44,536 nucleotides of DNA from an uncultured Eubacteriales bacterium (GTDB lineage Bacteria > Bacillota > Clostridia > Oscillospirales > CAG-272), in NCBI GenBank assembly GCA_900544985.1, contig UQXK01000011.1, positions 1 to 44,536 on the forward strand. Reading direction: 5' to 3'. Below are positions 3,175-44,536 of this stretch, piece by piece (positions within the stretch are counted from its first letter, which is position 1; each line of letters opens with the position of its first letter). A program made the position numbers and the translations under genes. The notes beneath the pieces were generated by a model. It saw only the letters and a program-made list of their open reading frames with translations. It searched no databases and had not been told where the DNA came from.

Positions 3175-3182
3175 ACACAAAA

Positions 3183-28696: not shown

Positions 28697-29082
28697 AAAA
28701 ATTTTTTGTTTTTATAATATCCGCAGTCCTCATACTTTCTATATGTTTTTCATCGACTGCCGCAAATATCCAATATACATATAATTACGGTAATGTAAGC
28801 GTAATATTTAATGACAATACCCATTTTTCGGAAGCTTCCCGCGAACATATAGCCGATATACTTGTCGGAAAAATTGGAGCGGATTCCGAAATCGAACCAT
28901 ATGGCATAGCCTGTCTTTTCGGTCATAAATATGTTACGGAAAATGTAATCACAATAACTCATTGTGTAAGTGAGACACAACCGAAATGCCTGAAAGAAAT
29001 TTTCGAAATAAGCGAATGTTCACGTTGCGGAAAAACAAAGACAGAAAGAATTGATTACTATTATATCACTTGCTGCCCGTAA
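28693..29082 (+). CDS. secreted small cysteine-rich protein (signal peptide; 129 aa)
   Basis: N-terminal MKKFFVFIISAVLILSICFSSTAA signal peptide. Seven Cys in the C-terminal half. Start overlaps the anti-sigma stop. Confidence 0.5.
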   Translation: MKKFFVFIISAVLILSICFSSTAANIQYTYNYGNVSVIFNDNTHFSEASREHIADILVGKIGADSEIEPYGIACLFGHKYVTENVITITHCVSETQPKCLKEIFEISECSRCGKTKTERIDYYYITCCP

Positions 29083-29356: not shown

Positions 29357-29698
29357 TTATACTGAATATGGGCGTCTGTAATTTTCAATAATTTTTTCAA
29401 ACAAAAAATTCTCTTCCGTTGAAAGTTTACTTTCCGAAATACTTTTCACTTTGATCAAAAGGGATATTTCCTCCGGCGTCATATATGCACGGTCCATCGT
29501 GTAATCGCCTACCACATATACTCCTCCGCCATATTTCCCTGCTTTTGTATCCAGAGGCATCATAAAAGTAAGTTCAAAAATATCTCTCTGTATTGTTCTC
29601 ACGGAAACACCGAATTTTTCGGCAAGAAAAGACATTGTCGCGTGCCTTTTTCTGCAAAGGTATTTCATGATTTCCAAACGTCTTTCGGCTGTCCCCAT
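29357..29698 (-). CDS. small HTH-domain protein (DeoR/WYL-N-terminal-like HTH), solitary paralog of 43852-44220
   Basis: MGTAERRLEIMKYLCRKRHATMSFLAEKFGVSVRTIQRDI. Clear paralogy to the protein at 43852-44220 (shared MGTAERR, GVSxRTIxRDI, GxYxGGVYVxxDYxMxRxYM). Confidence 0.6.
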   Translation of the reverse strand: MGTAERRLEIMKYLCRKRHATMSFLAEKFGVSVRTIQRDIFELTFMMPLDTKAGKYGGGVYVVGDYTMDRAYMTPEEISLLIKVKSISESKLSTEENFLFEKIIENYRRPYSV

Positions 29699-29835
29699 AA
29701 ATCACTTCCTTTCGCACAAACAAAAACATGACAAACAGCCAAACCAGCCACCTGTCATGCTCATATCTTAAAAATCGTGCGATGTACGAAGTGTTTTTAT
29801 CTTAAATTTTTATACTTTTCCAATAACTGAAAAAG

Positions 29836-30039
29836 TCAAACTATTATTGCAGAATCGTCTATTTTGTAAACTGTATTCTCATTTGAAATCTTTACTGCCA
29901 AAACATTCTTGCAGTTTTTGCATTTTATGATTATATCAGCTTTTTCGGAATTACTGTCCGATAATTTTGATATTGTTATCGTTTTATTTGAATCACAAGC
30001 TCTTCTGTTGCATATAGGACAAGGATACTCTTTTATCAT
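29836..30039 (-). CDS. small zinc-finger protein, phage Mu Com-like (67 aa)
   Basis: CPICNRRA...IKCKNCKN are two CxxC pairs in a ~65-aa protein. The call is tentative. Confidence 0.35.
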   Translation of the reverse strand: MIKEYPCPICNRRACDSNKTITISKLSDSNSEKADIIIKCKNCKNVLAVKISNENTVYKIDDSAIIV

Positions 30040-30113
30040 TTAATTCCTCCAATTTATTCGCAATTTTGCGAACACGCACGGCGAAAAATATATGGTGAAC
30101 AAACACCATATAT

Positions 30114-30872
30114 TTAAGTATATCGATATTTATTTTTAATAATGCCCAAATTAAGCATTCTTATCTGTACAGCCTTGCAAGATACCTGAAAAACATTTGC
30201 AATATCAGCGATAATACTGTTCAAACGCTTTTTCTCGGAAAATGTTTCGGGAACCGAAATATATTTTCCGCTTATTCCGTTCTTGCTCATTATCTTGTAC
30301 GTATAATTCACAAATACATTCATCGGCATAAGCAACGATGCCGCAAGAGCATCTGCCTGCCATTCGATCCAATCGTTATCCGTGATATTTTTCGTCTTAT
30401 TCAGTTCTACACTACGGCACGCTATATACGAAGACGAATCGCCGACCCGATTTCTTAAATTCTCGTTTTTTCTGCCATAATACGCTTTGTGCAAAATAAA
30501 ATGTGCCCCCTCATGCATCTGCGTATAACGTCGTCTGGTATACTGATCTATATTGTATAACGCAGGTGTGATCAGAATATTTCCAAAAGTCTCCTCCAAA
30601 ATGACAGGTTTAAACATATCATCATATGAAGGAATCTCAACGATATCGCTCATAACGATAAGTCCCAAAATTTTGGAGCCGAAAGGACCTATATATTTGC
30701 ATTTTACAACAAGACCGAGATAGTTTTCCAAAAAATCAACAGTATCCAAAGATGTCGGACGTTCAAGGTTTTGCGGAGCATATTCTCGGATAACACTGTC
30801 TGCAATATTTTCAATGTCATTTTTGGAGAGAATATAAAGACCGTTTTCTTTTTGAACGTACTCTGATTTCAT
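30114..30872 (-). CDS. ImmA/IrrE-family metallo-endopeptidase (DUF955)
   Basis: HEGAH is an HExxH motif, in YTQMHEGAHFILH context. Immediately downstream of an XRE gene. Confidence 0.7.
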   Translation of the reverse strand: MKSEYVQKENGLYILSKNDIENIADSVIREYAPQNLERPTSLDTVDFLENYLGLVVKCKYIGPFGSKILGLIVMSDIVEIPSYDDMFKPVILEETFGNILITPALYNIDQYTRRRYTQMHEGAHFILHKAYYGRKNENLRNRVGDSSSYIACRSVELNKTKNITDNDWIEWQADALAASLLMPMNVFVNYTYKIMSKNGISGKYISVPETFSEKKRLNSIIADIANVFQVSCKAVQIRMLNLGIIKNKYRYT

Positions 30873-30894
30873 AAAAAGGCACCTCAATAATACT

Positions 30895-31284
30895 TTAAGA
30901 GTTTTTTTGTTTGATAAACTTTATAAGTTCCATCCAGTCTTCATCGGTAAAATTATTGTCTTTTGCAGTTCGAAGCGCCATGCGTGCAGACGGCAATGAT
31001 TCAATATATTCATTGATATCGCTGTGCTGTCCGTTTTGGCTTATGCCTGCCAAATCGTAAAAAGTATTCAATTCATCGGTATCGGTAATTTCCAAGGCAC
31101 TTGCAAAAGTTTCGAGAAATTTTTCCGGGGCATGACGATTTCCCTTTTCTATATCACATAAATAAGCCGGTGATATCTTCACTTTTTCGGCAAAACCTCT
31201 TAAATTAAACCCAAGTTCCTCTCTTCTTTGTCTGACATATTCACCGAACGGTGAACTTACTTCCTTCATAACGGTATTCCCCAT
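30895..31284 (-). CDS. XRE-family HTH regulator (ImmR-like partner of ImmA)
   Basis: GFNLRGFAEKVKISPAYLCDIEKGNR is an HTH. Its stop is 7 nt from the ImmA start. Confidence 0.7.
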   Translation of the reverse strand: MGNTVMKEVSSPFGEYVRQRREELGFNLRGFAEKVKISPAYLCDIEKGNRHAPEKFLETFASALEITDTDELNTFYDLAGISQNGQHSDINEYIESLPSARMALRTAKDNNFTDEDWMELIKFIKQKNS

Positions 31285-31475: not shown

Positions 31476-32276
31476 TTATAATTCAGGTAAAATTTCAGGG
31501 AAAGAAAGCACTGATTTATCAGACGAATCGATTGCTATTATATATTTTTCGGACAATTTCGCATAACTTAATTTCGGAGCTTCACAAATAACTTTTTCAA
31601 AAAGTTTTTTTGCAGTGTCCTTATCTCCCGAATAATATTTTATAGCAGCAGTGTAAAAAACCTGACTCATCTTAATAATATTACTTGTTTTTGAAGTTTG
31701 TTTGTTAAATAAATCTTCTAATATTTTTTTGCATTCATCGAAATCTTCTTTTAAATAGCTTTCGAATAATTTTATAGTATTATCTTTTATTTTTTTCGCG
31801 CTATCCTTTTCATAGTTTCTGAATTTTTCACAAACTGTTTTTAATTTCTCATTGTCTCCAATATCAAAATAGACTCGCGAAAGTATCAAAAAATAATCAT
31901 ATTTATATTTTAAACTGCGCTTTCCTTTAATTACATTTGTGCACATATTTACTGCCATTTGATAATTTCCGGAATAATAGTAGTAAAGTACACGATATAA
32001 TTCACTCCTGCACATAATACATATTTTAGAATTTATTATCAAACCAAATTTTTCCGGATCCATATCTTTACACAAAACCGGCATATATAATTTTGCCTCT
32101 AATACCATGGTAAAAACAAGAAGCATAAAACCAAGAAAAATCAATAAAACAAGATATGCCCAAAATTTATCAAAAAAAATAATTTCCAATGCAATTAGCG
32201 ACATCATCAATAGAAAAAATATTGTCATCAAAACAAAATATTTCCTAATAATACTTTTAGCACTCTTATTATTCAT
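31476..32276 (-). CDS. multi-pass membrane protein with TPR-like C-terminal region; putative immunity protein for the RHS toxin
   Basis: Position directly downstream of the RHS C-terminal toxin domain. Three or four TM helices. The start is probably at MNNKSAKS. Confidence 0.5.
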   Translation of the reverse strand: MNNKSAKSIIRKYFVLMTIFFLLMMSLIALEIIFFDKFWAYLVLLIFLGFMLLVFTMVLEAKLYMPVLCKDMDPEKFGLIINSKICIMCRSELYRVLYYYYSGNYQMAVNMCTNVIKGKRSLKYKYDYFLILSRVYFDIGDNEKLKTVCEKFRNYEKDSAKKIKDNTIKLFESYLKEDFDECKKILEDLFNKQTSKTSNIIKMSQVFYTAAIKYYSGDKDTAKKLFEKVICEAPKLSYAKLSEKYIIAIDSSDKSVLSFPEILPEL

Positions 32277-32336
32277 AAATCCCCCTATAAAATTATTGCA
32301 CAAAAATTTATACCACAAAATCACCTATGATTTTAA

Positions 32337-35300
32337 TTATCCAAGTGCACCACCGGCAACAGCACCACCTACTATAAATCCTCCGATCTCCGAAATATAA
32401 GGTATTATTAGAGGACCAGCACAAGCTATAATTCCCCCTACTGCGACTGTACCAACAGTTATTGCACCGGCTGTAATCAGCCAGCTCCAATCATAACCGT
32501 CAGAGGGTTCTTCAACCTTTGGGGTAAAGACAATAACAGGTTCAGGAAATGGATTCTGTACTTTGCTCGGACTATTTTTTGAAAGAATCGGTGAGCCATT
32601 TGATTCATAAATAAAACTTTTTGGCACATCAGCTTTTTCTTTTCCTGGTAACATCGGAGGAAATTTATCCATGCCAATTGTAGTTGACACTGAATTCTTG
32701 TCGTCAATCTTCGTAGTTACAGTATATTCAGCATTAAGCATTCCTGTTTTGAATATCTTTACAGAAGCCGATATAGAACTAACATCATCTATATTTGCAG
32801 AATATGATAATTTTACTTCGTTATCCGAACATGAAATTGTCAAATTATCTTTCGATAATTTCAAGCTCTTTAAAGAATCATATTGTCCTTGTATAATCTT
32901 AGAAATATCAAACTCACCATTACCAAAAGTCGTTGAGACAGAAAAATAATATCTGGCTAATCCCACCAATATGCTTCCTTCATACGCCTCTATATCATGT
33001 GAATTAATTTTATCAAGGATATCATTCAAAGTACTCTCCATTTGATTTATACTGTTTCTCTCCGCACTTAGGCCAAACGGGTCTATGTTCGAAACAGGAT
33101 TGCCGTTTGCATATGCATAGCGATTAAGAGTTATCGCATTGGAAATTTCACCCGGCACTATATCCGCATTTATAAATCTTCTCAGTTCGGGAGAATAATA
33201 CCTTGCCCTCATGTACAAAAGACCGTTTGCATCGGTTATTACGCCGTCGCGTCCGTTGTACCCGAAGATAACAAAGCTTTCGCCTGTTCTGTTTATGAGT
33301 TTGCCGTAGGAGTCGTACTCGAACGTGTCTGTTACAGCCCCGCTCTCGTCCGTTATTGCAACGGTGCTGCCGCGGTAGTCATAGTGATACGTCTTGTACT
33401 CCCCGAATTTTTCTTCTCCGATAAGTCCCAGACCGTATACATATTTTGTAACTATTCCGTTCGTCATCTTTTGCAACAGCTGGCTTAATTTGCAGTTGGT
33501 ATTATACGTGTAAAGAGTTTCATAGCACTCTCTTACATTAAAGATTCGGTTATCTTCCGCGTCGTATGTATAATTCTGACCGCCCGCATATAAAAGTCTG
33601 TTCGCAGAGTCATATTCGAAATCCATAGGATCATCTTCTATTATAGAAGTGAGCATATTTCCGTCCATATCGTAGGAAATCGTCTTTCCATTATATGAAA
33701 GCAAACGGTTATCGGCGTCATATACAAAAGAATTATCTTCTTTATCGCCTGTGATATTGCCCGCCGCGTCATACGAATACGTTTCCTCGGAGAGTGTGAC
33801 ATTTGCAAAATTTTTGACAGTGCGTTTTGTAAGCCTTGACAGTTTATCATAAATATAGCACACTTTTATTTTTTTTGCAAGGTCTTTCTCTTCCGTTATT
33901 CTACTTAGTGTATCATAAACATATTCATAGCCCGTTATGACATCTCCGCCCACCGTACGTTCCACCGTAGATGTAACACGGTGTTTATTGTCATAGACCG
34001 TCGTAGTTACGCTTCCGTCGGGTTTTACAACACCTGTAACGTTGTTATTTTCATCATATGTATATGATGTTATCCTATTCGCCCAGTCTGTGACGGAAAT
34101 AAGATTATTGTTTGCATCATATGCATAATTTACCGCGGTATTATCCGGATAAACGATCTGCGTAAGGTTACCTACGGGGTCATATGTATAATTTATAGTA
34201 TAGCCGTAAGTATCCTTATACGATATAACGCGGTTGAGTGCATCGTACGTACGCGTTATAACGCCGTTTGAGCCCGTTACAGTGAGGACATTGCCATTGG
34301 CGTCATAAGTGTACCCGACAGAGTCTTCCTCGCTTACACAGCTCGTAATTCGACCGAGAACGTCATAGAAATATTTTCTATTCTGACCTCTGCCGTTTGT
34401 GAGCTGTTTTTTGACGTTCAGTTCATTATAAGTATACGATACGGCACCGCCGGACGATGTCGTCTCCTCAACAAGTCTTCCCATGTCGTCGTAAGTATAG
34501 CTTGTACTTCCGCCGAGAGGACCACAAAGTTTTGTAATATTGCCGAGAACATTATAATCCGCACTGCCGGAATTATTCAAAGCATCTTTTACAGATGTAT
34601 TTTGTCCGCGTGAATTATATGTATATTCTTTGCGGTTATTCATAGAATCGGTGACGCTTGCCACTTTGCCGAGAGCATTGTAGGTATACGATGTAGTCTT
34701 GCCTGCCGCGTCGGTAACCGATATCGGGAGATTCAGGCTGTTATACACTGTCTCGCTTATAGTATTGCCCTTCGCGTCCGTAGTTTTTACAACATTGCCG
34801 TTTGCGTCGTAAACAGTTGTAAATACATTGTTTTTAGCATCCGTGACGGTTGTACGTCTGCCGAGCGCATCGTAGCCGTATTTTACAACGTTATTTCTCG
34901 CGTCTTTGACGGAAACGAGCTGATTAAGCGAATTATACGTATACGTAGTGACATTATTAAGCGGATCTTTTACAGTGAGCAGATTATTATTTGCGTCATA
35001 GGTATATCTTGTAATATTGCCGCGTGCGTCTTTCGATGTAAGCATATTTCCGTATATGTCATATGTATACGTCTTTTTATTATTGAGCGCGTCAGTTTCG
35101 CTCAGAAGATCGCCTGCGGAAGAGTACGAATACACCGTTGCGCCGGAAACTGCATTCACTGCCCTTGTGACTTTTGACATGGCATTGTATTGATAACGAG
35201 TTATATTCCCCTCATTATCGGTAACGGAAAGCACATTGCCGTTTTTATCATACGTTTTTACAGTTGCAGCGCCGAGCGGATTTATCTCTTTTACGACATT

Positions 35301-38060
35301 GCCCGCAGAATCGTATTCATATTTCAAAACAGCGCCGTCGGGAAGCCTTTTTGAAACAATTCTGCCCGCGGGGTCATATGTGAGAGCAGTTACATTGCCC
35401 GCCTGATCCGTTATTTTAACGGGTCTGTCCTCGCCGTCAAACTCGTATTGCACCGTATTGCCGTCGGGCATGGTGACAACATCGTTTTTCATATTTCCGT
35501 TATAAGAATATTCGGTTTTATTGCCGTTGGCGTCTGTGACGGCAATTTTCTGGTTGTTGCAATCATACTCGTTGACAACAGATTTACCGTTGGCGTCGGT
35601 GGCCTTTATAAGATTGCCGACCGCGTCATATTCATACGACGTCACATTGTTTTCAGTATCTTTGCGGGAGACAAGCTGTCCTATATCGTTATAACCGTAC
35701 AGAATCGTGTTGTTCATCGCGTCGGTTTCGGACATAAGCAAGCCGTTACTATATGAATATCTTACGGCATTTCTGCTTCCGGTCTTTTGAGTAGCGGGAA
35801 GCGAATGAGAATCATAAGTATATACGGTCGCCATGCCGCGAAGATCTGTATGTTTTACGATTTGGTTTCTGTCGTTATACTCAAATGTTTCAACAGGAGT
35901 CTTCCCCTCGTTTACGGGATAAGTTATCTTTGTGATATTACCCTTGCTATCGTATGTAAACGTTGTCTTTTTGCCGTTTTTATCGGTTATTTCCGTCGGC
36001 TTGTTAAAGATGTTATATGTTTTCAATACGGAATTTCCGTTCGCGTCCGTTTCCTTTACGACATTGTAGCACGCGTCATATTCATAGGTCTTTGCGTTTC
36101 CGTTCGCGTCGGTAATACTCGAAAGAAGACCGTTCTCATCATACATTCGTATGCTTTGTTTTCCGTTGCGGTCAGTTGTGATTCTTTTTCCGTCGCTTTC
36201 GTAAACGAATGTCGTGGGATTCGAACCGGGGATTCCGTCTTTTTGAGAAATAACACGACCGTAAACATCGTATGTATTTTCAAAATATTTTACGTTGTTT
36301 GCGTCGGTACCGGACTTAATCAATCCTTCGGGAGTATACGTATACGTGATGCTGTTTCCGTTTACATCGCAAATAGATTTCAAAAGATCTCCTTCGTATG
36401 TAAAAGAAGCTTTCCTCGCCGCGTCATCATAGACTTTTATTATCTTTCCGGATAAATCTTTTTCAATATATATTTTCTTTCCCGATACGGAATCCGTAAC
36501 GGTAATTAAATTTTCGGAATAATCTATCAAAGTTTCAAAGCCGTTATGATTTATTATTTTAGATATATAACCGTCATTGTTGTAAAGTTCTTTTCTCTCG
36601 GAATTGCAATCCACAATGTACGGATATTCTGCCGAGCAGTCCACCTGTAAAACATATCCACCCTTATTTACGGATGTGCAGTAATAAACATTCTCTTCGC
36701 CGTTCGATACGTATCTCGAATATACGGACGGATTACTGTATATCAAAATGCCGTCCTCTGCAATTTCCAAATGTTTTTCATAGTTATGATACCATCCGGT
36801 TCCGAGTGTTCCGGAAGTCAGTTTTGTGGAATCGTAACTTGCGGTAAACCCCAGTCCCTGCCCGCCGAATAAAGTAATGATATTATTGTTTATCATATGA
36901 GCGCCGCTGTATGCGTCTACCGGATCCGCAACAAGACCGTCGTTCAATATAGGCTTGTCCTCAGACTCCGCAGGAGATACCGCTGTCTGTTTAACCGTTA
37001 CATCGCAATAATCTTTCACTTTCCCGTCAAACGACGTAGCACAGATTTTGGTTTTTCCGACACCGATAGCCGTGACATCACCTTTAGATTCATCGACAAT
37101 AACAATACTCGTATCCATGCTGCTCCATGTTACTTTTTTCTTCGTCGCATTCAAAGGCAAAACAGTTGCGCAGAGTTTTGTCGTTCCGCCTTTGTACAGC
37201 TCAATCGAATTTTGGCTGAGCTCTATACACTCCGCATAGACAGGATCTATTACGGTTATGATACACTCGCCGAAAATGCCGCTTCCGTTTGTTGAAACAG
37301 CGCGTATTCGCGCGGTACCTACTTTTTTTGCATATACCAAAGGATCATTAGGATTTACCGTTGCAATTTCCGGATCCATACTTATCCACTTTATAACTTT
37401 ATCATCTGCATCAGCAGGACAAAACACGGCACGGAGATAAACGGATGTAGCCCATCTCAAAGTATACTTATCCGGAATTACTTTTATAGCTTCAAGAGGA
37501 ATATAATTCTTTTTTACTACCTGTACATGGCATTTTGCGCTCACCCCGCTTCCGTCATTGGCTGTTGCGGTTACATATGTGCAGCCTTCGGATACACCGT
37601 ATACATCTCCGCCGTTCACAAATGCGATCATCTGGTCATCGCTCTTCCAACTGACGGATTTGTTTTTCGCGTTACTCGGCAATACGGTTACGTCAAGAGA
37701 AGAACATTCTTTTTCTCTCAAAAGTAAACTATCCGGATGCAAAAAGACAGAGCTCACTTTTATAACATCCTCTACATCAGTTACATTTACGGTCGCATAT
37801 CCTCTGGCACCGCTTCCGTCCACCGCGACGGCGTAAATGAGAGTTGTGCCCGCAGCTTTTGCATATACATATCCGCTGAATTCATTTACGGTTGCAACAT
37901 TCGGATTGTCACTGTACCATTTTACACTTTTTAATGTTGCGTATTCCGGGCATACCGTTACCGTTATGTCGTAATACCATTCTCCCTTTTTTATCGTTAT
38001 TTGTTGCGGACAAACAGTTACAGAACTTACACCTATCATATTTCTTCCTCCCGTATCCAT
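32337..38060 (-). CDS. RHS/YD-repeat polymorphic toxin (1907 aa) with N-terminal Big_2 Ig-like domains and C-terminal glycine-zipper membrane-active toxin domain
   Basis: Several Big_2-like units (e.g. SVKWYSDNPNVATVN). Dozens of YD repeats (YTYDxxGN...). RHS core end YMRARYYSPELRRFINADIV...NPVSNIDPFGL. A ~330-aa variable C-terminus ends in GxxxG-rich TM segments. Confidence 0.9.
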   Translation of the reverse strand: MDTGGRNMIGVSSVTVCPQQITIKKGEWYYDITVTVCPEYATLKSVKWYSDNPNVATVNEFSGYVYAKAAGTTLIYAVAVDGSGARGYATVNVTDVEDVIKVSSVFLHPDSLLLREKECSSLDVTVLPSNAKNKSVSWKSDDQMIAFVNGGDVYGVSEGCTYVTATANDGSGVSAKCHVQVVKKNYIPLEAIKVIPDKYTLRWATSVYLRAVFCPADADDKVIKWISMDPEIATVNPNDPLVYAKKVGTARIRAVSTNGSGIFGECIITVIDPVYAECIELSQNSIELYKGGTTKLCATVLPLNATKKKVTWSSMDTSIVIVDESKGDVTAIGVGKTKICATSFDGKVKDYCDVTVKQTAVSPAESEDKPILNDGLVADPVDAYSGAHMINNNIITLFGGQGLGFTASYDSTKLTSGTLGTGWYHNYEKHLEIAEDGILIYSNPSVYSRYVSNGEENVYYCTSVNKGGYVLQVDCSAEYPYIVDCNSERKELYNNDGYISKIINHNGFETLIDYSENLITVTDSVSGKKIYIEKDLSGKIIKVYDDAARKASFTYEGDLLKSICDVNGNSITYTYTPEGLIKSGTDANNVKYFENTYDVYGRVISQKDGIPGSNPTTFVYESDGKRITTDRNGKQSIRMYDENGLLSSITDANGNAKTYEYDACYNVVKETDANGNSVLKTYNIFNKPTEITDKNGKKTTFTYDSKGNITKITYPVNEGKTPVETFEYNDRNQIVKHTDLRGMATVYTYDSHSLPATQKTGSRNAVRYSYSNGLLMSETDAMNNTILYGYNDIGQLVSRKDTENNVTSYEYDAVGNLIKATDANGKSVVNEYDCNNQKIAVTDANGNKTEYSYNGNMKNDVVTMPDGNTVQYEFDGEDRPVKITDQAGNVTALTYDPAGRIVSKRLPDGAVLKYEYDSAGNVVKEINPLGAATVKTYDKNGNVLSVTDNEGNITRYQYNAMSKVTRAVNAVSGATVYSYSSAGDLLSETDALNNKKTYTYDIYGNMLTSKDARGNITRYTYDANNNLLTVKDPLNNVTTYTYNSLNQLVSVKDARNNVVKYGYDALGRRTTVTDAKNNVFTTVYDANGNVVKTTDAKGNTISETVYNSLNLPISVTDAAGKTTSYTYNALGKVASVTDSMNNRKEYTYNSRGQNTSVKDALNNSGSADYNVLGNITKLCGPLGGSTSYTYDDMGRLVEETTSSGGAVSYTYNELNVKKQLTNGRGQNRKYFYDVLGRITSCVSEEDSVGYTYDANGNVLTVTGSNGVITRTYDALNRVISYKDTYGYTINYTYDPVGNLTQIVYPDNTAVNYAYDANNNLISVTDWANRITSYTYDENNNVTGVVKPDGSVTTTVYDNKHRVTSTVERTVGGDVITGYEYVYDTLSRITEEKDLAKKIKVCYIYDKLSRLTKRTVKNFANVTLSEETYSYDAAGNITGDKEDNSFVYDADNRLLSYNGKTISYDMDGNMLTSIIEDDPMDFEYDSANRLLYAGGQNYTYDAEDNRIFNVRECYETLYTYNTNCKLSQLLQKMTNGIVTKYVYGLGLIGEEKFGEYKTYHYDYRGSTVAITDESGAVTDTFEYDSYGKLINRTGESFVIFGYNGRDGVITDANGLLYMRARYYSPELRRFINADIVPGEISNAITLNRYAYANGNPVSNIDPFGLSAERNSINQMESTLNDILDKINSHDIEAYEGSILVGLARYYFSVSTTFGNGEFDISKIIQGQYDSLKSLKLSKDNLTISCSDNEVKLSYSANIDDVSSISASVKIFKTGMLNAEYTVTTKIDDKNSVSTTIGMDKFPPMLPGKEKADVPKSFIYESNGSPILSKNSPSKVQNPFPEPVIVFTPKVEEPSDGYDWSWLITAGAITVGTVAVGGIIACAGPLIIPYISEIGGFIVGGAVAGGALG

Positions 38061-38866
38061 TAAAACATATTATCGATAATGATATCCGCTCTTCGCATAA
38101 GATCGACATTGAATGTCGTTTCCATGCCTTTGTCATCGTGTATGGGATGACAGTCTTTTCCGTATTGCCAGATCGCTATATCGTTTCTTGTGATACCGGA
38201 GGGCGCAAAAGGAATCCAGTTATCGGGATGAATAAGGTGCGTTGTCGTTACTCGTTCGTACTCCGAAAGGCTCGGGGAGACTGTCCAGATAAGACATTTT
38301 GAGAATATCTCTCTATCGGTCTGCATTCCTCTGCTGTATTCGCGGTCAAAATCATATTTTGCATCTGTATTTACTTTAAATCCGGAAACATATCCTTCCG
38401 AAATCAATACTTCTGCAAAACCGCGCATACAGTCGGTCGTAAATTCTTCCTTTTCGCCTATCTCAAAGAAAATAGCGGTATCTTCCGGAATTTCAAGTTC
38501 AAATGCGGTGACAATGACCTTTTTGGCAATGAGCTTTCCCTGTTCCGCCGTCTTCTTTTCTCCTGCATCACTGTAAATCGCAGCGATTTTGCAGCCTTTA
38601 TCATGAAGAAAATCAATTTCTTTTTTTGTAAGACAGTTTTCGCCTACAATATTTCTTCCCCAGAAATTGGGATAAAGCTTGTTGCGCACGACCCATTCAA
38701 ATTCATTTATATTGTTTTGGAGAAGATCATCCGCCGGGATTCTGGAATCCACACCGAACAAAAGTCTGTCAATTTTCGAAACAACTTTTTTCTCTGTTGT
38801 CGCAGGCTGAACATTGTCAGCCATATTGTTTATATTTTTTATTTTCAGTGCATTTTTGCATGCCAT
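38060..38866 (-). CDS. putative DUF1906-like (glycoside-hydrolase-like TIM-barrel) protein, translationally coupled to the RHS gene
   Basis: TAATG stop/start overlap with the RHS gene. Weak pattern resemblance to the DUF1906/Rv2525c-like family (FGVDSRIPADDL...NFWGRNI...LTKKEIDFLHDKGCKIAAIY). Confidence 0.35.
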   Translation of the reverse strand: MACKNALKIKNINNMADNVQPATTEKKVVSKIDRLLFGVDSRIPADDLLQNNINEFEWVVRNKLYPNFWGRNIVGENCLTKKEIDFLHDKGCKIAAIYSDAGEKKTAEQGKLIAKKVIVTAFELEIPEDTAIFFEIGEKEEFTTDCMRGFAEVLISEGYVSGFKVNTDAKYDFDREYSRGMQTDREIFSKCLIWTVSPSLSEYERVTTTHLIHPDNWIPFAPSGITRNDIAIWQYGKDCHPIHDDKGMETTFNVDLMRRADIIIDNMF

Positions 38867-38981
38867 TTTTAGTTACCTCTTTTCTTGAATTTTATTTTTA
38901 TTTTTTATTTTGCAGCTGCAAACATATTTTACTGCTTAATCGGGACAACTCTTGTCCTGATTAAATATGATTTTTTGTTTT

Positions 38982-39551
38982 TTATATCGCAACCTCGTAT
39001 TTTCTTTCGAAAAAGCGGTCGGATTTACTTTTGGATTTTCCTATACGGTTGAAAAATTCTTCTGTATCGGCTATATGCCCTTTCGAAACAAGAATCTCCG
39101 CAACTTCATATATAAGCTTCATCGCGTCCGCCTCATGACCTTTTAAATATTCAGTTTCAAGTTCATAATCCGCGCACCCGATATAATTGTTGCTGTCCAA
39201 AACCATTTCACAAAAACGGTCTTTGAACAATACCGTTCTTTTCGTATAAAGACATCCCGAAAATTGCAGACCTTTTACGCCGAATACATCGGCATCAAAG
39301 CAACTTTTTACCTTCAAAGTTTTCTCAATACTCTTATCGGGAAAATCGGTATTATGACTTTTTACCGTAGCTTCTGTTTTATCGCCTTTTTGACGTATGC
39401 GGTATGTAAATCCCTTGCGGTACATATCAAGATTTTCTGTGTCAAAGTAGTAATTCGTTTGAGAATACGAACGCTTGTCATTTCCCAACATTCCCAGAAT
39501 CGTTAAATACTCCTTAAAAGTAAGAAGTATCTTTTTTTCATATTCGATCAT
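38982..39551 (-). CDS. CYTH-domain (triphosphate tunnel metalloenzyme) protein
   Basis: N-terminal MIEYEKKILL is the ExExK motif. Size ~190 aa. Confidence 0.6.
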   Translation of the reverse strand: MIEYEKKILLTFKEYLTILGMLGNDKRSYSQTNYYFDTENLDMYRKGFTYRIRQKGDKTEATVKSHNTDFPDKSIEKTLKVKSCFDADVFGVKGLQFSGCLYTKRTVLFKDRFCEMVLDSNNYIGCADYELETEYLKGHEADAMKLIYEVAEILVSKGHIADTEEFFNRIGKSKSKSDRFFERKYEVAI

Positions 39552-39552
39552 C

Positions 39553-40920
39553 TCACGCGCTCCTTATTATCTTGCCTGACCCGTTTTTCGGGAGTTCTTC
39601 TACTATTTCAATACAGTCCGGAACCTGAAACGCAGGAAGATATTTAAGGCACATGCTCTTCACTTCTTTTACGGAAGAAAAATCTCCGCAGATCTTCATG
39701 CCGATTTTCATTGTCCGCTCGGTTTTTATGCCGTATGCGAATACTTCCTTTACACGAGGAGCGTTTTTGAGCGCCGCTTCGATTTCAGCTGGATAAATGT
39801 TCATTCCCGATCTTATTATCATATCGTCACTTCTTCCCTTGATCCGAATCAATCCGGAATCATTCATTAAAGCGATGTCCCCCGTACAGAGCCAACCGTC
39901 TTTCAAGACGGCTTTTGTTTTTTCATCGTCATTATAGTATCCGACCATGACATTAGGTCCCCTTACCCAAAGCACGCCTTCTTTTCCGTTTAAAACGGGA
40001 TTTCCGTTTTTATCCGCTAATTTCACGGAAACCGATTTTAGGGGAATGCCGACATATTCGGGAAATTCCGAAAACTTTTCCGGCGGAAGATACAAAACAC
40101 GCGGCGAAGCTTCCGTCAATCCGTAAATATGATATATCTTGCTGCCTTTAAACGCATCTTTTAAACGAAGACCTGTATCGCGGCTCATGCACTCTCCGCT
40201 TGCGCAAATATATTTAAGCGTTTCTGCCATATTGTTCCGATTATACGCCGACATCATTTCAAGAAGCGTCGGTGTTCCGCAAAAAGCAGTTATCTTATAT
40301 TCATGTATCATTTTCAGAATTTCGGGCGGGTTGAATTTTTCCGAATAGAAACGTATCTTTGTCCCTTTAATTAAGGAAACAAGAAATTCACCCGTTAAAA
40401 CCGCAGAATGATAAAGCGGTCTTGAAATCAATATACTGTCCGTCGTACCGATTCCAAAATAAGACGCGATATCGGAAACATTCGAAATAATATTTTCCTC
40501 GCTCAGCATAGCGCCTTTCGGTCTTCCCGTAGTCCCGGAAGTACACATTATAAGCGCGGGACGGGTAGCGGGAGTTTTATATTTACTGTCCGAAATTTTT
40601 CGTATGAGGAAATCATCTTTCTCGTCGGTAATAACTGCTTCGGGATCTACTGTTTCAATGATCTTGTTGCAGTGTATGGCACCGTAACGCATAGACAAAG
40701 GAATCGCCGTAACATCGGCGGCAAAACATCCGAGCAACGCCATCGCCGCCGCCATCTCGGATTTGCAAAGTATAGCGCAGCTTTTTATTCCTTCAAGTCT
40801 TTTTGAAAACAATTCCGCCCATACTGCAAGTTCCTCAAAAGAAAGTTCGGCATTTCCTTCACATACGATTTGATCATAATGACATAACATATTCTCTTTT
40901 ATGTAGTTCCAAAGTTTCAT
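39553..40920 (-). CDS. AMP-dependent synthetase/ligase (acyl-CoA or acyl-ACP ligase, ANL superfamily)
   Basis: TSGTTGRPKG P-loop motif. C-terminal GDIAL...GRSDDMI...GSGKI adenylation motifs. Confidence 0.8.
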   Translation of the reverse strand: MKLWNYIKENMLCHYDQIVCEGNAELSFEELAVWAELFSKRLEGIKSCAILCKSEMAAAMALLGCFAADVTAIPLSMRYGAIHCNKIIETVDPEAVITDEKDDFLIRKISDSKYKTPATRPALIMCTSGTTGRPKGAMLSEENIISNVSDIASYFGIGTTDSILISRPLYHSAVLTGEFLVSLIKGTKIRFYSEKFNPPEILKMIHEYKITAFCGTPTLLEMMSAYNRNNMAETLKYICASGECMSRDTGLRLKDAFKGSKIYHIYGLTEASPRVLYLPPEKFSEFPEYVGIPLKSVSVKLADKNGNPVLNGKEGVLWVRGPNVMVGYYNDDEKTKAVLKDGWLCTGDIALMNDSGLIRIKGRSDDMIIRSGMNIYPAEIEAALKNAPRVKEVFAYGIKTERTMKIGMKICGDFSSVKEVKSMCLKYLPAFQVPDCIEIVEELPKNGSGKIIRSA

Positions 40921-41924
40921 TTGTTTTTCCCTCCTGTCTTCTCTATAAGCTCACCGAGAAGACGCTTTTCATTTTCTTTTGATAAAAGCAAACTTTTCCC
41001 GATAATCGGCAATACGGAATCCCGCCTTTTTATACAGTGCGAAGCATATAGCATGCGCATATTATTCGCGTCACCGACCAATTTTCTGTATTTTTTACTG
41101 ATATCGGGATTTATATCAAAATTCTCCTCGATTCGTTCTGTTACTTCAAGCATCAGCTTTTTATGCTCCCAAAGTAATCGGAATACGCGGCGGTCGATCG
41201 ATTCATAAGGGATAGCCCCCGCAGAAAGTTTTTCAATGTATTTTTCTATGTAATCGTATACGGCAATTCCGTATACGATCCCTTCCCCATCCCACGGGTA
41301 TTTTTCTATCGTCGAATCAAGATATTCGGATATTTTTCCCATGGCTGTTTCGGGAGAAAACTCCGCCTTGTCCTTTTTGGGTTTAATCCCGTAGATTTTG
41401 CCGTATACTCCCTTTTCGAACATCGCTTTTCTCGCCTTTTCGAATGAAGACTTCGGAGTCCAGAATTTGTTGTATACCCAATTACTGTCATAAGCATACA
41501 TACAATATGTCTTGTCATCACGGTTGTATCCGCATATCATACCGTCATGGCTGAAATGACGCTCTTTATACCACGTCTTTCCTTCTATGTAATAATCATC
41601 AACATCGACAAAATAAACATAATATCCCGCGTCCAGTAAATTATGAATAAGAGGATTTACGTACCCGCCGAGAAATTCCATGCCGTAAAAATTCTTATCC
41701 AAATAAGGATTTAATTTCCAATGTGAATTCACGATATCAAGCTCCGGACTCGAAAATCCCGATAGAAATCTCCTGCTGCAATAAGGTATTATCGTTTGAT
41801 TCAAATACCAATTTTTTATGGAAGGATTATCACAAATCACAGCCGAACCAACGCCTTGGACCTGATATGTACCATATATAGGCGATACCAAAGGAAGCTC
41901 AACCGACTTTTTCATAGTTATCAC
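40917..41924 (-). CDS. hypothetical protein (335 aa); possibly a papain-fold acyl-ACP-dependent acyltransferase (BtrH-like) - speculative
   Basis: Overlapping stop/start with the ACP and ligase genes. No motif could be confirmed by eye. Confidence 0.4.
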   Translation of the reverse strand: MITMKKSVELPLVSPIYGTYQVQGVGSAVICDNPSIKNWYLNQTIIPYCSRRFLSGFSSPELDIVNSHWKLNPYLDKNFYGMEFLGGYVNPLIHNLLDAGYYVYFVDVDDYYIEGKTWYKERHFSHDGMICGYNRDDKTYCMYAYDSNWVYNKFWTPKSSFEKARKAMFEKGVYGKIYGIKPKKDKAEFSPETAMGKISEYLDSTIEKYPWDGEGIVYGIAVYDYIEKYIEKLSAGAIPYESIDRRVFRLLWEHKKLMLEVTERIEENFDINPDISKKYRKLVGDANNMRMLYASHCIKRRDSVLPIIGKSLLLSKENEKRLLGELIEKTGGKNK

Positions 41925-42153
41925 CCGTATACTTTCTTACAAGTTCAACGACATCTCCGACGGTTATCAGATCAAAAGGATTCAAATCAGATTCGTTTAA
42001 TTCTATCTTGAATTCGCTTTCAATATCCAAAAGTAAATTGACCAGAGCAAGGCTGTCAAGCGCAAGATCATTCTCCAAGCTATCCTCCGATGACACCTCG
42101 GCTTCCCCGCTCATACTTTTTAATATTTCCGCAACTTTTTCAAATACTGCCAT
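41899..42153 (-). CDS. acyl carrier protein (stand-alone, pathway-dedicated)
   Basis: DLALDSLALVNLLLDIESEF carries the phosphopantetheine-attachment DSL motif. 84 aa, acidic. Confidence 0.8.
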   Translation of the reverse strand: MAVFEKVAEILKSMSGEAEVSSEDSLENDLALDSLALVNLLLDIESEFKIELNESDLNPFDLITVGDVVELVRKYTGDNYEKVG

Positions 42154-42781
42154 TTTTCATCCTTTCTATTTCCCTTTTTACAATTTCATAACTCTCTTCT
42201 TCGGGACACTCTGTTGAAATAAGAACACCGTTATTCGCATTGCAGATATCTATATACTCATTTCTGAGTTTGTACTGCAAATCCATATCGATATAGCGGT
42301 CCTTTTCGCCGGAACGGGCGCGAACGCGTTCGACGGCTTTTTCCACAGAAACATCAAAAAAGAACGCTATATCAGGCTTTATAACCGACTTGGCTATCTC
42401 ATATATCCATTCATCGTTCTTAAAACCTCTGGCGCGAAGATTTGCAAGACAAGAATAAAAATACCTGTCGCTTAGTACGATCCTGCCTTCATTCATTGCA
42501 GGCTCGATTACTTTATTTACATGTTGCAGACGGTCGCTCGCCGCAAGAAGAGAGAGACTTCTGTAATCAAAATCATCATGGCAAGGAGAATCCATATAAT
42601 TCCTGAAAATTTTAGATTCACGCACGTAATTTGTGGGCTGCTTTGTAAGAAAAAGTTCGTTGTCCGTTTTCAGGTCCGAAAAAATACGATTAAGCATCGT
42701 TGTTTTTCCGCATCCGTCAAGTCCGCAGACCGTTATTAAAAATCCGCGTGTTTTATTTTCACGCATATCGAGTTTTCTCAT
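42140..42781 (-). CDS. thymidylate-kinase-family P-loop (deoxy)nucleotide kinase
   Basis: GLDGCGKTT P-loop and LSDRYFYS (DRY motif), as in dTMP kinase. Confidence 0.65.
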   Translation of the reverse strand: MRKLDMRENKTRGFLITVCGLDGCGKTTMLNRIFSDLKTDNELFLTKQPTNYVRESKIFRNYMDSPCHDDFDYRSLSLLAASDRLQHVNKVIEPAMNEGRIVLSDRYFYSCLANLRARGFKNDEWIYEIAKSVIKPDIAFFFDVSVEKAVERVRARSGEKDRYIDMDLQYKLRNEYIDICNANNGVLISTECPEEESYEIVKREIERMKNGSI

Positions 42782-43848
42782 GTTTTCTTCACCTCCGTTA
42801 AATCTCTTTTTCTGTCCTCCATAAAAAAGCGCTTTGTAATATCATCTGTTTTATAAAGAAAGACTTTTTTGTCTTTCGGCGAAATAACTCTTCTCAGAAA
42901 GTTTTTGTCATCTTCTAAAACTTTTTTCGATTCTTCTGCGATCTTCGAATCAAAAATATCAAACAGCTCCGCCGTTTCATATATAGCGTAAGCACAGATT
43001 TTTTCCATTCCCAATTCTTTTGCTCTTTTTTGCAAAGTCTTAAATTCAAAATCGGTCATTCCACTCAGAAGAAGATAAATATCGCAATATTTGTAAAGAG
43101 TCATATCGCGTCGCATTTCGATCCACGGGAGAGTTGTCGCCTCTTTATACAAATGCGAGCAAAGATGAATAAAAAAATCCGTCTTATCGAGAGTGGGAAT
43201 TTTCATTTTCCCGACTTTTGTAAAAGATGATCTTTCCAGCATAGATGACAATATATCAGTATTTCCGTTTTTATAATCCAGCGAAAAATTTATATCAACC
43301 TCCAAAAATCTCATATGAGGAAGATTCACTTCTTTAATGTACGGCACTGTTTCCCCGCGCATCATTTTTGATTCAATTATCTCTTTGCGTGCAGCAGGAA
43401 CAAATTCTCCGTTTCTGATATTTCCTTGCCTGAATCCTGATTTCAGAAGAATATCTGCTATTTTGCCGATATCCTCCGGCATTACAAGTAAATCGATATC
43501 ATTCGATGTACGGTACCCCTCCGGATAATAGGCGCACAAAAACGCGCCTTTAAGCATCACCGCCTTACAATCAAGGAGAATATCCGAAAGAAATTTCACA
43601 CATTTAAAAAAGCTCTTGTTTTTCTCTTGATTATATTCATAAGCGGATTGCAAAGAGCTTTTAAATTCGCGGTTTACTTTTCCGAGCAAACCGTGCTTTT
43701 TTAACGTTCCGTATGCTATTCCCTGCATTCGATTGAAAAATATCTGTCCGAGTACATTGGCGTTAGCATACGGTATCAACGATTCGTCAAAATCATTATT
43801 TTGAAATTTACATAACTCTTTAAATAACAATTTTTCTTTTTGTTTCAT
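42778..43848 (-). CDS. Pol-beta-superfamily nucleotidyltransferase (uncharacterised NTP_transf_5-like family)
   Basis: GYRTSNDIDLLV is a [GS]...DxD NTase motif. ~356 aa. Confidence 0.5.
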   Translation of the reverse strand: MKQKEKLLFKELCKFQNNDFDESLIPYANANVLGQIFFNRMQGIAYGTLKKHGLLGKVNREFKSSLQSAYEYNQEKNKSFFKCVKFLSDILLDCKAVMLKGAFLCAYYPEGYRTSNDIDLLVMPEDIGKIADILLKSGFRQGNIRNGEFVPAARKEIIESKMMRGETVPYIKEVNLPHMRFLEVDINFSLDYKNGNTDILSSMLERSSFTKVGKMKIPTLDKTDFFIHLCSHLYKEATTLPWIEMRRDMTLYKYCDIYLLLSGMTDFEFKTLQKRAKELGMEKICAYAIYETAELFDIFDSKIAEESKKVLEDDKNFLRRVISPKDKKVFLYKTDDITKRFFMEDRKRDLTEVKKT

Positions 43849-43851
43849 ATA

Positions 43852-44220
43852 TTATTTTCCTTTCTTAAATATAGGTTTTGAATAAAGTGAGATAATAGAG
43901 GCAAGCGTATTTTTCTCATCATGTGTCAGTATTGAATCATCTCTGTCAGCTGCAACAAATAATTTTTTCAGTACGTTCAATTCCCGATCGCTCATATACA
44001 TTCGCTCCATATGATAATCTTCCATAACATATACACCGCCGTAATATCTTCCCGTTTGTGTATATATAGGTTCGGAAATACTTATCGCCTCTATATCTCT
44101 TCTGATAGTTCTTTCGGAAACGCCGAATTCAAAAGCCAGATTTTGTATCGTCTCATATCTGCGAGAACATAATAATTTCAATATCCCGCTTCGTCTTTCG
44201 GCAGTTCCCATTTTGCTCAC
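43852..44220 (-). CDS. small HTH-domain protein, first gene of the operon of seven genes that ends with the CYTH gene (paralog of 29357-29698)
   Basis: MGTAERRSGILKLLCSRRYETIQNLAFEFGVSERTIRRDI. Its stop is 3 nt from the NTase start. Confidence 0.6.
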   Translation of the reverse strand: MSKMGTAERRSGILKLLCSRRYETIQNLAFEFGVSERTIRRDIEAISISEPIYTQTGRYYGGVYVMEDYHMERMYMSDRELNVLKKLFVAADRDDSILTHDEKNTLASIISLYSKPIFKKGK

Positions 44221-44295
44221 CTCCTTTCTGACAAAATTTTACCGCTTAACCAGGACAGATAAAGTCCGGGTTAAAAAATAAAAATCCGCAAAAAA

Positions 44296-44374
44296 GAAAA
44301 ATCCCGCGGATATCACCGAATCACCGCGGGAAATCGTATCAGAAAATAAAAAAGAGTTCCTGAATGGAACTCTT
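44296..44374 (-). terminator. two tandem hairpin terminators (minus-strand orientation) downstream of a partial gene at the window end
   Basis: agagttcctgaatggaactct and tcccgcgg...ccgcggga stems, each followed by T-runs on the minus strand. Confidence 0.5.
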
Positions 44375-44456
44375 AATAGGGATTTTTTTATATTGATTAT
44401 CAATCAAAACTTTTGCGACAAAGACTATATTTAATTTTCTATTGAAGTAAACTTTT

Positions 44457-44536
44457 AGATTATTTTATCTTTGCGACGATAAATAATATCGCCATTGGCA
44501 TTTATATATCCGTCCGCATTTATAAATCTTCCCATT
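44457..44536 (-). CDS. 3' end of an unidentified gene (partial)
   Basis: Open frame ...GRFINADGYINANGDIIYRRKDKII* running in from the window edge. Confidence 0.3.

Follow-up and report, generated by a model that had tools for sequence, protein, structure and literature searches.

We describe a cassette of seven minus-strand genes (positions 38982-44220) in contig UQXK01000011.1 of assembly GCA_900544985.1, from an uncultured Eubacteriales bacterium (CAG-272), of which positions 1-44,536, the whole 44,536-nt stretch analysed, are referred to here as the window. In order of transcription the genes encode a helix-turn-helix (HTH) regulator, a PF14907 nucleotidyltransferase (NTase), a Tmk-like P-loop kinase, a stand-alone acyl carrier protein (ACP), a protein of 335 residues, an ANL ligase and a CYTH (triphosphate-tunnel) enzyme. 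Very probably the cassette is a conserved operon accessory to an RHS toxin system of gut Clostridia whose toxin is released by lysis, and has as its core a thiotemplate module of the AsbC/AsbD/AsbE or BtrJ/BtrI/BtrH type. As it is kept beside RHS and lysis genes and shares their promoter element, a part in deploying the toxin is probable. A first interpretation made from the letters of the DNA (the sequence-only reading) had called the gene set no standard pathway, and we likewise found no literature description of this combination.

Results

Relatives of the cassette were gathered by a degenerate-pattern scan with one genome per species, which gave 146 confirmed cases, of which 80 loci (L001 onwards) were retained. 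Their sources are uncultured Clostridia of the gut and rumen, with humans, ruminants, roe deer and chickens as hosts, and include Oscillospiraceae, Acutalibacteraceae, Christensenellaceae and a few Lachnospiraceae; the comparative data are nearly all from metagenome-assembled genomes. The cassette is syntenic in the 80 species-level genomes, with the 335-aa protein 46-97% identical, and the order NTase, kinase, ACP, 335-aa protein, ANL ligase is essentially universal (72-80 loci). Recurring in so many species-level genomes, the arrangement is not due to chance. Of the 68 loci with enough sequence, 59 have the HTH gene adjacent, and of 74 cassettes 59 have the CYTH gene adjacent and 15 lack it. 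Catalytic motifs of all six enzymes are kept across 26-74 orthologues.

In the window the seven tightly packed open reading frames (ORFs) lie where the sequence-only reading had placed them, and Pfam and NCBIfam bear out the genes and their domain identities (Table 1). The claim that all junctions measure 0-4 nt holds for four of six, namely HTH/NTase (3-nt gap), NTase/kinase (4-nt overlap), 335-aa/ANL (4-nt overlap) and ANL/CYTH (1-nt gap), and fails for kinase/ACP, which overlap by 14 nt, and ACP/335-aa, where the overlap is 26 nt if the 335-aa gene starts at the listed GTG and 17 nt if it starts at the ATG of the database protein P0001. All six junctions are compatible with a single transcript and translational coupling, and no terminator was found inside the cassette. 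The distance to the DUF1906-like gene that follows is, as had been given, 115 nt by the coordinates.

Downstream, the cassette is followed either by a DUF1906-like gene (31 loci) or by an unrelated gene of a family named here c10 (37 loci), and then by at least one RHS gene. The c10 protein has 376 residues and no Pfam match (e.g. L077 9230-10360 and L007 5754-6893, with loci across L003-L079); its gene takes the place of the DUF1906-like gene between cassette and RHS gene, the RHS type there being more divergent. It often starts 3 nt before the CYTH or ANL stop, and in many loci is translationally coupled to the cassette. The RHS types are 24-60% identical and are shuffled with respect to the cassette. 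On the tree of the 335-aa protein the DUF1906 and c10 types are intermingled, and co-evolution with a single partner gene was rejected on that ground. Among the 40 loci with at least 10 kb of flank, 37 contain RHS, DUF1906-like or c10 genes; a few loci have no RHS gene in the available flank, L023 and L034 having none within 7-8 kb.

Genes for XhlA, a Hol44-type holin (Phage_holin_5_2) or Amidase_2 are present in 18 loci. In L018, L023, L025, L034, L046, L056, L057, L059, L061, L074, L077 and L079 such lysis genes stand next to or within the RHS/cassette locus, under the same palindrome as the cassette (see below). In L059, L077 and L079 the XhlA, holin and amidase genes stand directly upstream of the NTase gene, and in some loci the cassette sits between lysis genes and a c10-RHS pair. 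Paralogues of the HTH gene occur alone ahead of lysis and RHS modules, and 16 loci carry a divergent pair of XRE-repressor and ImmA-peptidase genes.

The palindrome ties these modules together. The pattern GTCC-N-G-N-TTAAGC-N-GTAAAAT has exactly two sites in the window, one before the HTH gene and one before the DUF1906-like gene, where 0.05 would be expected. This pattern forms the right half of a palindrome of 29 bp, TTAACCnnGACA-N5-TGTCnnGGTTAA, with a TAnAAT box 4 nt further on. Across the related loci the palindrome gave 158 matches, compared with 23-36 in shuffled sequence, upstream of HTH, DUF1906-like, c10, RHS and XhlA genes. The same architecture precedes the HTH gene at 57 related sites and the DUF1906-like gene at 29, and the consensus over 113 oriented sites places TAnAAT at a fixed spacing from the palindrome. 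The consensus of DUF1906-like, RHS and XhlA sites has a further 10-bp palindrome, TGCAGCTGCA, some 5-9 nt past the -10 box; the HTH (cassette) sites lack it, which suggests a second regulatory layer separating toxin and lysis genes from the cassette. From these sites we infer one regulon with two promoter classes, cassette and toxin/lysis. The functional link to the RHS locus proposed by the sequence-only reading is thus upheld by the 37 of 40 loci with partner or RHS genes and by the common promoter-associated palindrome; a wide occurrence of the cassette away from toxin genes, which that reading had named as the observation that would count against the link, did not emerge.

Phage-type lysis genes under the shared palindrome point to a lysis-mediated release of the RHS proteins. 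The N-termini of the RHS protein and its DUF1906-like partner, read by eye, have no evident signal peptide, and it had been suggested that a modification by the cassette could compensate for this. Such compensation is unnecessary, because related loci hold XhlA-holin-amidase cassettes under the same palindrome, and these offer a simpler route of release.

Upstream of the cassette the two terminator-like hairpins are one from 44374 to 44352, followed by TTTTATTTT, and a 28-nt GC-rich one starting at 44330, followed by AUUUUUCUUUUUU; a 110-nt leader folds at -45.5 kcal/mol (z = -6.0). The likelier start of the HTH gene is the ATG at 44211. Its product has an HTH_11/DeoR-type N-terminal domain and about 60 more residues, and matches the N-terminal part of the PADLOC WYL-regulator model. 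Co-transcription of the cassette with the DUF1906-like/RHS pair, which the sequence-only reading had thought possible, is indeed possible, since the 115-nt gap contains no terminator. As that gap holds a palindrome and a -10 box, however, the pair most likely has a co-regulated promoter of its own as well.

Termination was rejected as the main role of the palindrome: on the coding strand no U-run follows it, and the terminator called at 38936-38964 belongs to the opposite strand. A known RNA such as a riboswitch was rejected too, since no Rfam family reaches its gathering score anywhere in the window. In each arm of the palindrome four variable positions stay complementary in 320 of 452 cases, though they differ between sites within a genome. 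Such complementarity is not explained by a simple dimer-operator model, and a role as hairpin or cruciform, or correction of one arm by the other, is possible.

The core of the cassette consists of the ligase, the ACP and the 335-aa protein. The translated ligase contains the ANL motifs TSGTTGRPKG, YGLTE, TGD, GRSDDMI and, at the C-terminus, PKNGSGKI, and its nearest solved structures are feruloyl-CoA and fatty-acyl-CoA synthetases and MenE; it is predicted to be of the acyl/aryl-acid rather than the amino-acid type. The ACP belongs to PF00550 and has the canonical DSL motif, with the Asp-Ser of the phosphopantetheine-attachment site kept in 74 sequences and sub-threshold matches to ACP, AsbD and AmcB models. 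The ACP gene overlaps the 5' end and the ANL gene the 3' end of the 335-aa gene, an arrangement kept in 73-77 of the 80 loci.

Known families were reached for the 335-aa protein solely by fold comparison and an exhaustive profile search. Pfam, NCBIfam and PADLOC scans gave no match, 25 orthologues scanned at E up to 10 gave noise only and no PF14399 (BtrH_N), and a profile search of the family against the PDB sequences again gave noise only. The AlphaFold2 model built from 25 orthologues (pLDDT, predicted local distance difference test, 91) has the CcbD/CtaG/AziU3 fold, with 8-9% identity to CcbD and CtaG in the fold comparison, and the modelled chain divides into a papain-like α/β domain at its N-terminus and a helical domain at its C-terminus. 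The exhaustive search with the family reached 2060 representative clusters, including distant relatives (21-30% identity) that have weak or sub-threshold PF14399 matches. The comparison with BtrH and papain-like acyltransferases that had been proposed is therefore positive at the level of the fold and through these relatives. One distant relative is the terminal domain, after a peptidyl carrier protein (PCP) domain, of a 2689-aa polyketide synthase-nonribosomal peptide synthetase (PKS-NRPS), and others adjoin phosphopantetheinyl transferase, AMP-binding, PP-binding or NRPS genes; CcbD itself has been solved in complex with a PCP domain (PDB 9dkr, 9dks).

Residues L10, Y102, D109, H126, G132, G219, E253, K255 and E319 are invariant in the wider 335-aa family, H123, D127 and H254 are nearly so, and D146 is Asp or Asn in most sequences. 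Two tandem copies of the 335-aa gene are present in L013, and two adjacent paralogues in the distant locus L085. Another relative, 22-23% identical, is encoded in a cluster on a Bacillus mycoides plasmid (L088; NZ_CP035996.1, 3071-9981) that resembles those for ribosomally synthesised peptides that are modified after translation (RiPPs). The same cluster holds an ABC (ATP-binding cassette) transporter and a protein that binds phosphopantetheine, as well as two 44-aa ORFs, an S8 peptidase and a DUF692 protein, and might serve to acylate peptides with the help of a carrier protein.

The remaining enzymes are the kinase, the NTase and the CYTH enzyme. The kinase (PF02223) scores 99.3 bits, above the TIGR00041 equivalog cut-off of 83.25, and its P-loop GLDGCGKTT and SDRYFYS motif are kept in 74 sequences. 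The NTase scores 112.3 bits with PF14907 (gathering score 31.2) and does not match PF08843 in Pfam, nor is there a PADLOC model for it; one orthologue (P0136) has a precomputed PF08843 (AbiEii) match. Its residues N116, D117, D119, E183 and D185 are invariant in 26 orthologues, and a model (pLDDT 88) confirms the NTase fold, a Pol-beta-type core flanked by helical domains. MenT1 is its nearest fold, similar in the core only (Foldseek E 6e-5; template-modelling score (TM) 0.59-0.63 on the target, TMq 0.36), and is followed by ANT(2'')-Ia and LnuA. The CYTH enzyme (PF01928, 52.4 versus 23.2 bits) has the ExExK motif (E3-x-E5-K-K7) in 60 sequences, with later acidic and basic residues also kept; BH2851 and GBAA_1210 are among its relatives.

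The kinase and ACP form a single polypeptide in three loci (L011 589-1464, L077 5954-6841, L079 2848-3729), as do NTase and kinase in a fourth (L039 577-2292). Because it is always found inside the cassette and is fused to ACP or NTase in four genomes, the genomic context argues for the kinase being a specialised paralogue and not a housekeeping dTMP (deoxythymidine monophosphate) kinase. Since the fusions tie NTase and kinase to the ACP, both may act on the carrier-bound species or its acceptor. There are precedents by analogy that support the pairing of a kinase with an uncharacterised NTase: a thymidylate kinase and a PF14907 protein flank the phosphoenolpyruvate (PEP) mutase of the phosphonate cluster family GCF 540 (bioRxiv 10.1101/2021.04.07.438883), and in a lasso-peptide cluster the uncharacterised NTase PsmN, which carries a DxD metal site, acts after the kinase PsmK on one peptide serine and requires the phosphate that PsmK installs (PMC6993621).

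Four other assignments of the cassette were dropped. A RiPP cluster was rejected, there being inside the cassette neither intergenic room nor a small ORF for a precursor peptide. PADLOC gave generic P-loop or HTH matches only, and no known anti-phage defence system. A phage origin found no relative in IMG/VR contigs or GenBank phages, though the lysis and ImmR/ImmA genes are phage-like. The dehydratase and aminotransferase genes of a dTDP-amino-sugar pathway are not present.

The RHS locus of the window begins with the DUF1906-like gene, which shares one base (38060) with the RHS gene. The C-terminal tip of the RHS protein (32337-32700) is glycine-rich and hydrophobic, …GAITVGTVAVGGIIACAGPLIIPYISEIGGFIVGGAVAGGALG, a composition that suggests a membrane-active toxin. 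The next gene (31476-32324) encodes 282 residues with a weak tetratricopeptide repeat (TPR) match only, and is likely the immunity gene. It is followed by a regulatory block that recurs in the same order next to the cassette in L081 (5490-7404), and whose ImmR/ImmA pairing suggests, by analogy with integrative and conjugative elements and prophages, induction by DNA damage. The probable limit of a mobile island is marked by the stretch 25706-29082, with its integrase, XRE HTH gene, sigma factor and two unknown genes; housekeeping genes, e.g. that for glycyl-tRNA synthetase (14359-15756), occupy the window beyond about 25 kb. The sole XhlA match in the window (16348-16446) covers 33 residues outside any ORF in this housekeeping DNA, and was rejected as spurious; the window thus yielded no lysis cassette.

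On its other side, the gene that ends just upstream of the cassette (44455-44536, minus strand) terminates ...GRFINADGYINANGDIIYRRKDKII, like the core-end motif of RHS proteins (RRFINAD in the main RHS), and looks like an RHS remnant. In L001, which is 97% identical, small upstream ORFs (1-3900) resemble orphan toxin-tip and immunity genes. Given this remnant and these orphan ORFs, the cassette can be placed between toxin arrays.

Table 1. Position and character of the features found in the window, listed in the direction of cassette transcription
Feature	Position	Strand	Details
Two terminator-like hairpins with U-runs	44290-44374	-	End upstream gene; 5' boundary of cassette transcription unit
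29-bp palindrome TTAACCCGGAC-N7-GTCCTGGTTAA	44246-44274	.	Upstream of HTH gene; presumed operator/promoter element
TAAAAT -10-like box	44236-44241	-	4 nt past palindrome, 24 nt before HTH ATG
HTH regulator	43852-44220	-	122 aa; PF08220 7e-9, PF08279 2e-8
PF14907 nucleotidyltransferase	42778-43848	-	356 aa; E 3.6e-32
Tmk-like P-loop kinase	42140-42781	-	213 aa; Thymidylate_kin E 4.9e-26
Stand-alone ACP	41899-42153	-	84 aa; PP-binding E 1e-8; DSL serine
335-aa protein	40917-41924	-	H123-x-x-H126-D127-G motif and D146; no conserved N-terminal cysteine
ANL ligase	39553-40920	-	455 aa; AMP-binding and AMP-binding_C E 3e-57
CYTH (triphosphate-tunnel) enzyme	38982-39551	-	189 aa; PF01928 E 7e-14; accessory
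Second 29-bp palindrome TTAATCAGGACA-N5-TGTCCCGATTAA	38936-38964	.	In 115-nt gap before DUF1906-like gene
TAAAAT -10-like box	38926-38931	-	4 nt past second palindrome
10-bp palindrome TGCAGCTGCA	38911-38920	.	Just beyond -10 box of DUF1906-like promoter
DUF1906/Rv2525c-like glycoside-hydrolase-like protein	38060-38866	-	268 aa; PF08924, 31 bits
RHS toxin	32337-38060	-	1907 aa; four Big_2, DUF6531, 17 RHS repeats, glycine-rich hydrophobic C-terminus
XRE-type repressor	30895-31284	-	Downstream of toxin
ImmA/IrrE-type metallopeptidase	30114-30887	-	Downstream of toxin
68-aa zinc-ribbon ORF	within 29357-31284	-	Regulatory block
Paralogue of cassette HTH (~50% identity)	29357-29698	-	Regulatory block
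Sigma-70-family factor	27228-27752		Probable island edge
XRE HTH gene	26839-27231		Probable island edge
Tyrosine integrase	25706-26620	-	Probable island edge

Discussion

In the mechanism we propose for the cassette, the ANL ligase would adenylate a carboxylic acid, acyl or aryl, and load it as a thioester on the dedicated ACP, from which the 335-aa enzyme of the BtrH_N/CcbD/CtaG fold would pass the group to an acceptor or otherwise resolve the thioester. The Tmk-like kinase might add a phosphate to the carrier-bound species or the acceptor, and the NTase might attach a nucleotidyl group to a hydroxyl or phosphate so as to extend or activate it, while the CYTH enzyme would be a dispensable helper handling tri- or pyrophosphate. 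The HTH protein or a paralogue, acting at the palindrome and -10 box, would have the cassette expressed in the cells that make and release toxin.

What leaves this pathway is less clear, and we lean only tentatively towards a small N- or O-acylated metabolite bearing phosphate or nucleotide that would be co-released at lysis, and not a modification of the RHS protein. Such a metabolite would be made from common cellular precursors and could serve as co-factor, co-toxin or signal. We favour it because the characterised members of the CcbD/CtaG/BtrH/AsbE fold all act on small or carrier-bound molecules (PMC12865890), because the structural neighbours of the NTase include the small-molecule nucleotidyltransferases ANT(2'')-Ia and LnuA and kinases of the Tmk family act on nucleotides, and because the cargo shuffles independently of the cassette, which does not track any one cargo.

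Several observations weigh against this account. No cysteine is conserved across the wider 335-aa family, including residues 1-45, where characterised relatives have an N-terminal nucleophilic cysteine (Cys11 in CtaG, with the triad Cys11-His128-Asp144, and Cys19 in CcbD), and because of this the 335-aa enzyme may not be a ping-pong acyltransferase; C49, C131 and C141 are invariant within the RHS-linked clade only and may provide a nucleophile specific to it. AziU3/U2, a close structural neighbour, is an aziridine synthase and no transferase (PMC12559475). The kinase passes the dTMP-kinase equivalog cut-off and could simply phosphorylate dTMP, and the top structural match of the NTase, MenT1, is a tRNA-modifying toxin. 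The fusions come from metagenome-assembled genomes, in which an indel error at overlapping junctions could mimic a fusion. That the HTH protein or a paralogue is the palindrome binder is presumed from its sequence. Finally, the cassette contains no phosphopantetheinyl transferase, scaffold-building enzyme, exporter or resistance gene, which is unusual for a natural-product cluster and would fit a protein or other macromolecular target equally well.

That last point favours the best-surviving alternative, a toxin-activating modification in which the BtrH_N-like enzyme would use the acyl-ACP of the cassette to acylate the RHS protein or its DUF1906-like or c10 partner, and kinase and NTase would decorate it with phosphate or a nucleotidyl group, just before release through the holin, in functional analogy to HlyC. 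It is also what the tight synteny, the promoter element common to RHS, partner and lysis genes and the translational coupling of c10 to the cassette would lead one to expect, and both the PsmK/PsmN precedent, in which a kinase and then an uncharacterised NTase act on a peptide serine (PMC6993621), and the relative of the 335-aa protein in the RiPP-like cluster of the Bacillus mycoides plasmid are in keeping with it. Nevertheless we consider it less likely than the metabolite. The HlyC-like acylation of RHS put forward by the sequence-only reading finds no HlyC-type domain in the seven proteins (Pfam, NCBIfam), and no protein acylation is known for a fold family whose characterised members handle small or carrier-bound substrates; nor are Tmk-like kinases known as protein kinases. 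As partner and RHS types shuffle, the target would need to be something that very different cargo proteins share, and cassettes such as those of L023 and L034 lack an RHS gene nearby. If true, no earlier pathway of post-translational activation would have been described for RHS toxins, and the fold would gain its first member that acts on a protein.

A quite different use of the same enzymes can be modelled on AziU3/U2, whose substrate is bound to a carrier protein. The kinase or NTase would then turn a hydroxyl of the ACP-bound acid into a leaving group, as a phosphate or nucleotidyl ester, and the 335-aa enzyme would displace it intramolecularly or eliminate it to give a reactive warhead, for instance a small ring or an unsaturated electrophile, much as AziU3/U2 make an aziridine by displacing sulfate on the neighbouring hydroxyl (PMC12559475). 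An enzyme that keeps H123, H126 and D127 without a conserved nucleophilic cysteine would suit such chemistry, the Tmk-ACP and NTase-Tmk fusions imply action on an ACP-bound species, and the tandem paralogues of L013 and L085 recall the AziU3/AziU2 heterodimer. However, the cassette has neither a thioesterase for release nor an enzyme to install an amine, and the argument proceeds wholly by analogy, which makes this route improbable.

Slightly less probable again is that the ACP receives a non-canonical prosthetic group made and attached by NTase, kinase and CYTH enzyme, in the manner of CitX/CitG or MdcG/MdcB, or of phosphopantetheine adenylyltransferase (PPAT) with dephospho-CoA kinase. CitX and MdcG, both holo-ACP synthases, have the NTase fold, and eukaryotic CoA synthase is a fusion of PPAT with dephospho-CoA kinase, which the NTase-Tmk and Tmk-ACP fusions bring to mind; furthermore no phosphopantetheinyl transferase gene lies in or near the cassette, whereas a distant relative of the 335-aa protein has an ACPS neighbour. 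Against this, the ACP is an ordinary PF00550 protein with a DSL serine, for which a housekeeping enzyme of AcpS/Sfp type would suffice, Pfam and NCBIfam find no CitX, MdcG or CitG match in the seven proteins, and the CYTH gene is missing from 15 of 74 loci.

The linkage to RHS could also be a coincidence of co-mobility, the cassette being an independent biosynthetic or salvage operon on the same island, which has an integrase/recombinase and ImmR/ImmA genes. The operon does have its own promoter and upstream terminators, and there are the few loci without RHS in the available flank. This reading is quite unlikely, as the same palindrome and -10 architecture stands at cassette, partner, RHS and lysis genes, and as the linkage is kept across 80 species of several families while the flanking cargo shuffles; the coupling to c10 and the position of the cassette between lysis genes and c10-RHS in some loci speak against it too. 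Least probable by our estimate is a growth arrest of the AbiE/MenAT kind, in which the HTH protein would be the antitoxin and the NTase would nucleotidylate tRNA in lysis-committed cells with the other proteins as passengers or modulators: the resemblance to MenT1, the AbiEii match of P0136 and the HTH gene directly upstream with an inverted repeat at its promoter, as in AbiE systems, are outweighed by the extra helical domains of a 356-aa NTase of which about one third is covered on MenT1 (TMq 0.36), by the kinase, ACP, 335-aa and ANL genes that invariably follow it and its fusion to the kinase in one genome, by the lone HTH paralogues before lysis and RHS modules, which mark a regulator of the regulon and no dedicated antitoxin, and by the lack of a defence or toxin-antitoxin model for the NTase in PADLOC.

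RHS toxins are widespread weapons whose making, arming and release by Gram-positive gut anaerobes are little understood. The module described here spans hundreds of protein clusters at 90% identity and no fewer than 80 species, always with the same five to seven genes. Were its product a co-released metabolite, the gut of humans and animals would yield a new class of toxin-associated small molecule; were the toxin modified, it would be a new mechanism of toxin activation. The enzyme of BtrH_N fold, which lacks a family-wide cysteine, and the recurring pair of Tmk-like kinase and PF14907 NTase offer tractable enzymology, and the palindrome with its -10 box is a compact regulatory code by which remaining members of the regulon can be found.

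The closest known systems are AsbC/AsbD/AsbE of petrobactin and BtrJ/BtrI/BtrH of butirosin synthesis, which like the cassette combine an activating enzyme, a free carrier protein and an enzyme of the BtrH_N fold, although BtrJ is an ATP-grasp enzyme and not an ANL ligase. In both systems the acyl group passes from the carrier protein to a free amine by way of the BtrH_N-fold transferase (PMC12865890). The cassette differs in that its 335-aa protein has neither a PF14399 match nor a catalytic cysteine conserved across the wider family, in its additional PF14907 NTase, Tmk-like kinase and CYTH enzyme, and in belonging to a toxin/lysis regulon instead of a siderophore or antibiotic cluster. CcbD, the lincosamide condensation enzyme, and CtaG, the papain-like ligase of closthioamide synthesis, use an N-terminal cysteine nucleophile; in the 335-aa family an H-x-x-H-D-G motif is conserved instead. 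AziU3/AziU2 of the azinomycin pathway is a heterodimer that works with a sulfotransferase in a large PKS/NRPS cluster, whereas the cassette usually has a single gene of this kind, no sulfotransferase and no amine-forming enzyme.

The likeness to HlyC and RTX toxins is that of an acyl-ACP-dependent step genetically linked to a large secreted toxin, the acylation here being predicted from the genes alone; HlyC is of a different protein family and draws on the cellular acyl-ACP pool, while the cassette has its own ACP and ligase. PsmK/PsmN and the GCF 540 pair of Tmk and PF14907 proteins share with it a kinase paired with an uncharacterised NTase, but come without ACP, ANL ligase or BtrH_N-fold enzyme, and PsmK is of the HPr-kinase type and not Tmk-like. 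PsmN may be a PF14907 protein. The CitX/CitG (MdcG/MdcB) families are not represented in the cassette, whose ACP is of PF00550 and not of the CitD/MdcC type, and AbiE and MenAT are two-gene systems of HTH antitoxin and DUF1814/AbiEii toxin, unlike the window NTase, which always belongs to an operon of five to seven genes. Type 10 secretion of Tc toxins and chitinases and the TcdE-dependent release of large clostridial toxins employ holin and endolysin genes, as are present in the related loci, a likeness that concerns the surrounding system and not the seven genes; we know of no holin/endolysin release system that includes a thiotemplate cassette. Set beside these systems, the core of the cassette is a module of a kind already known, and what appears new is its enzyme without a family-wide cysteine, the added set of kinase, NTase and CYTH enzyme, and its membership of an RHS/lysis regulon.

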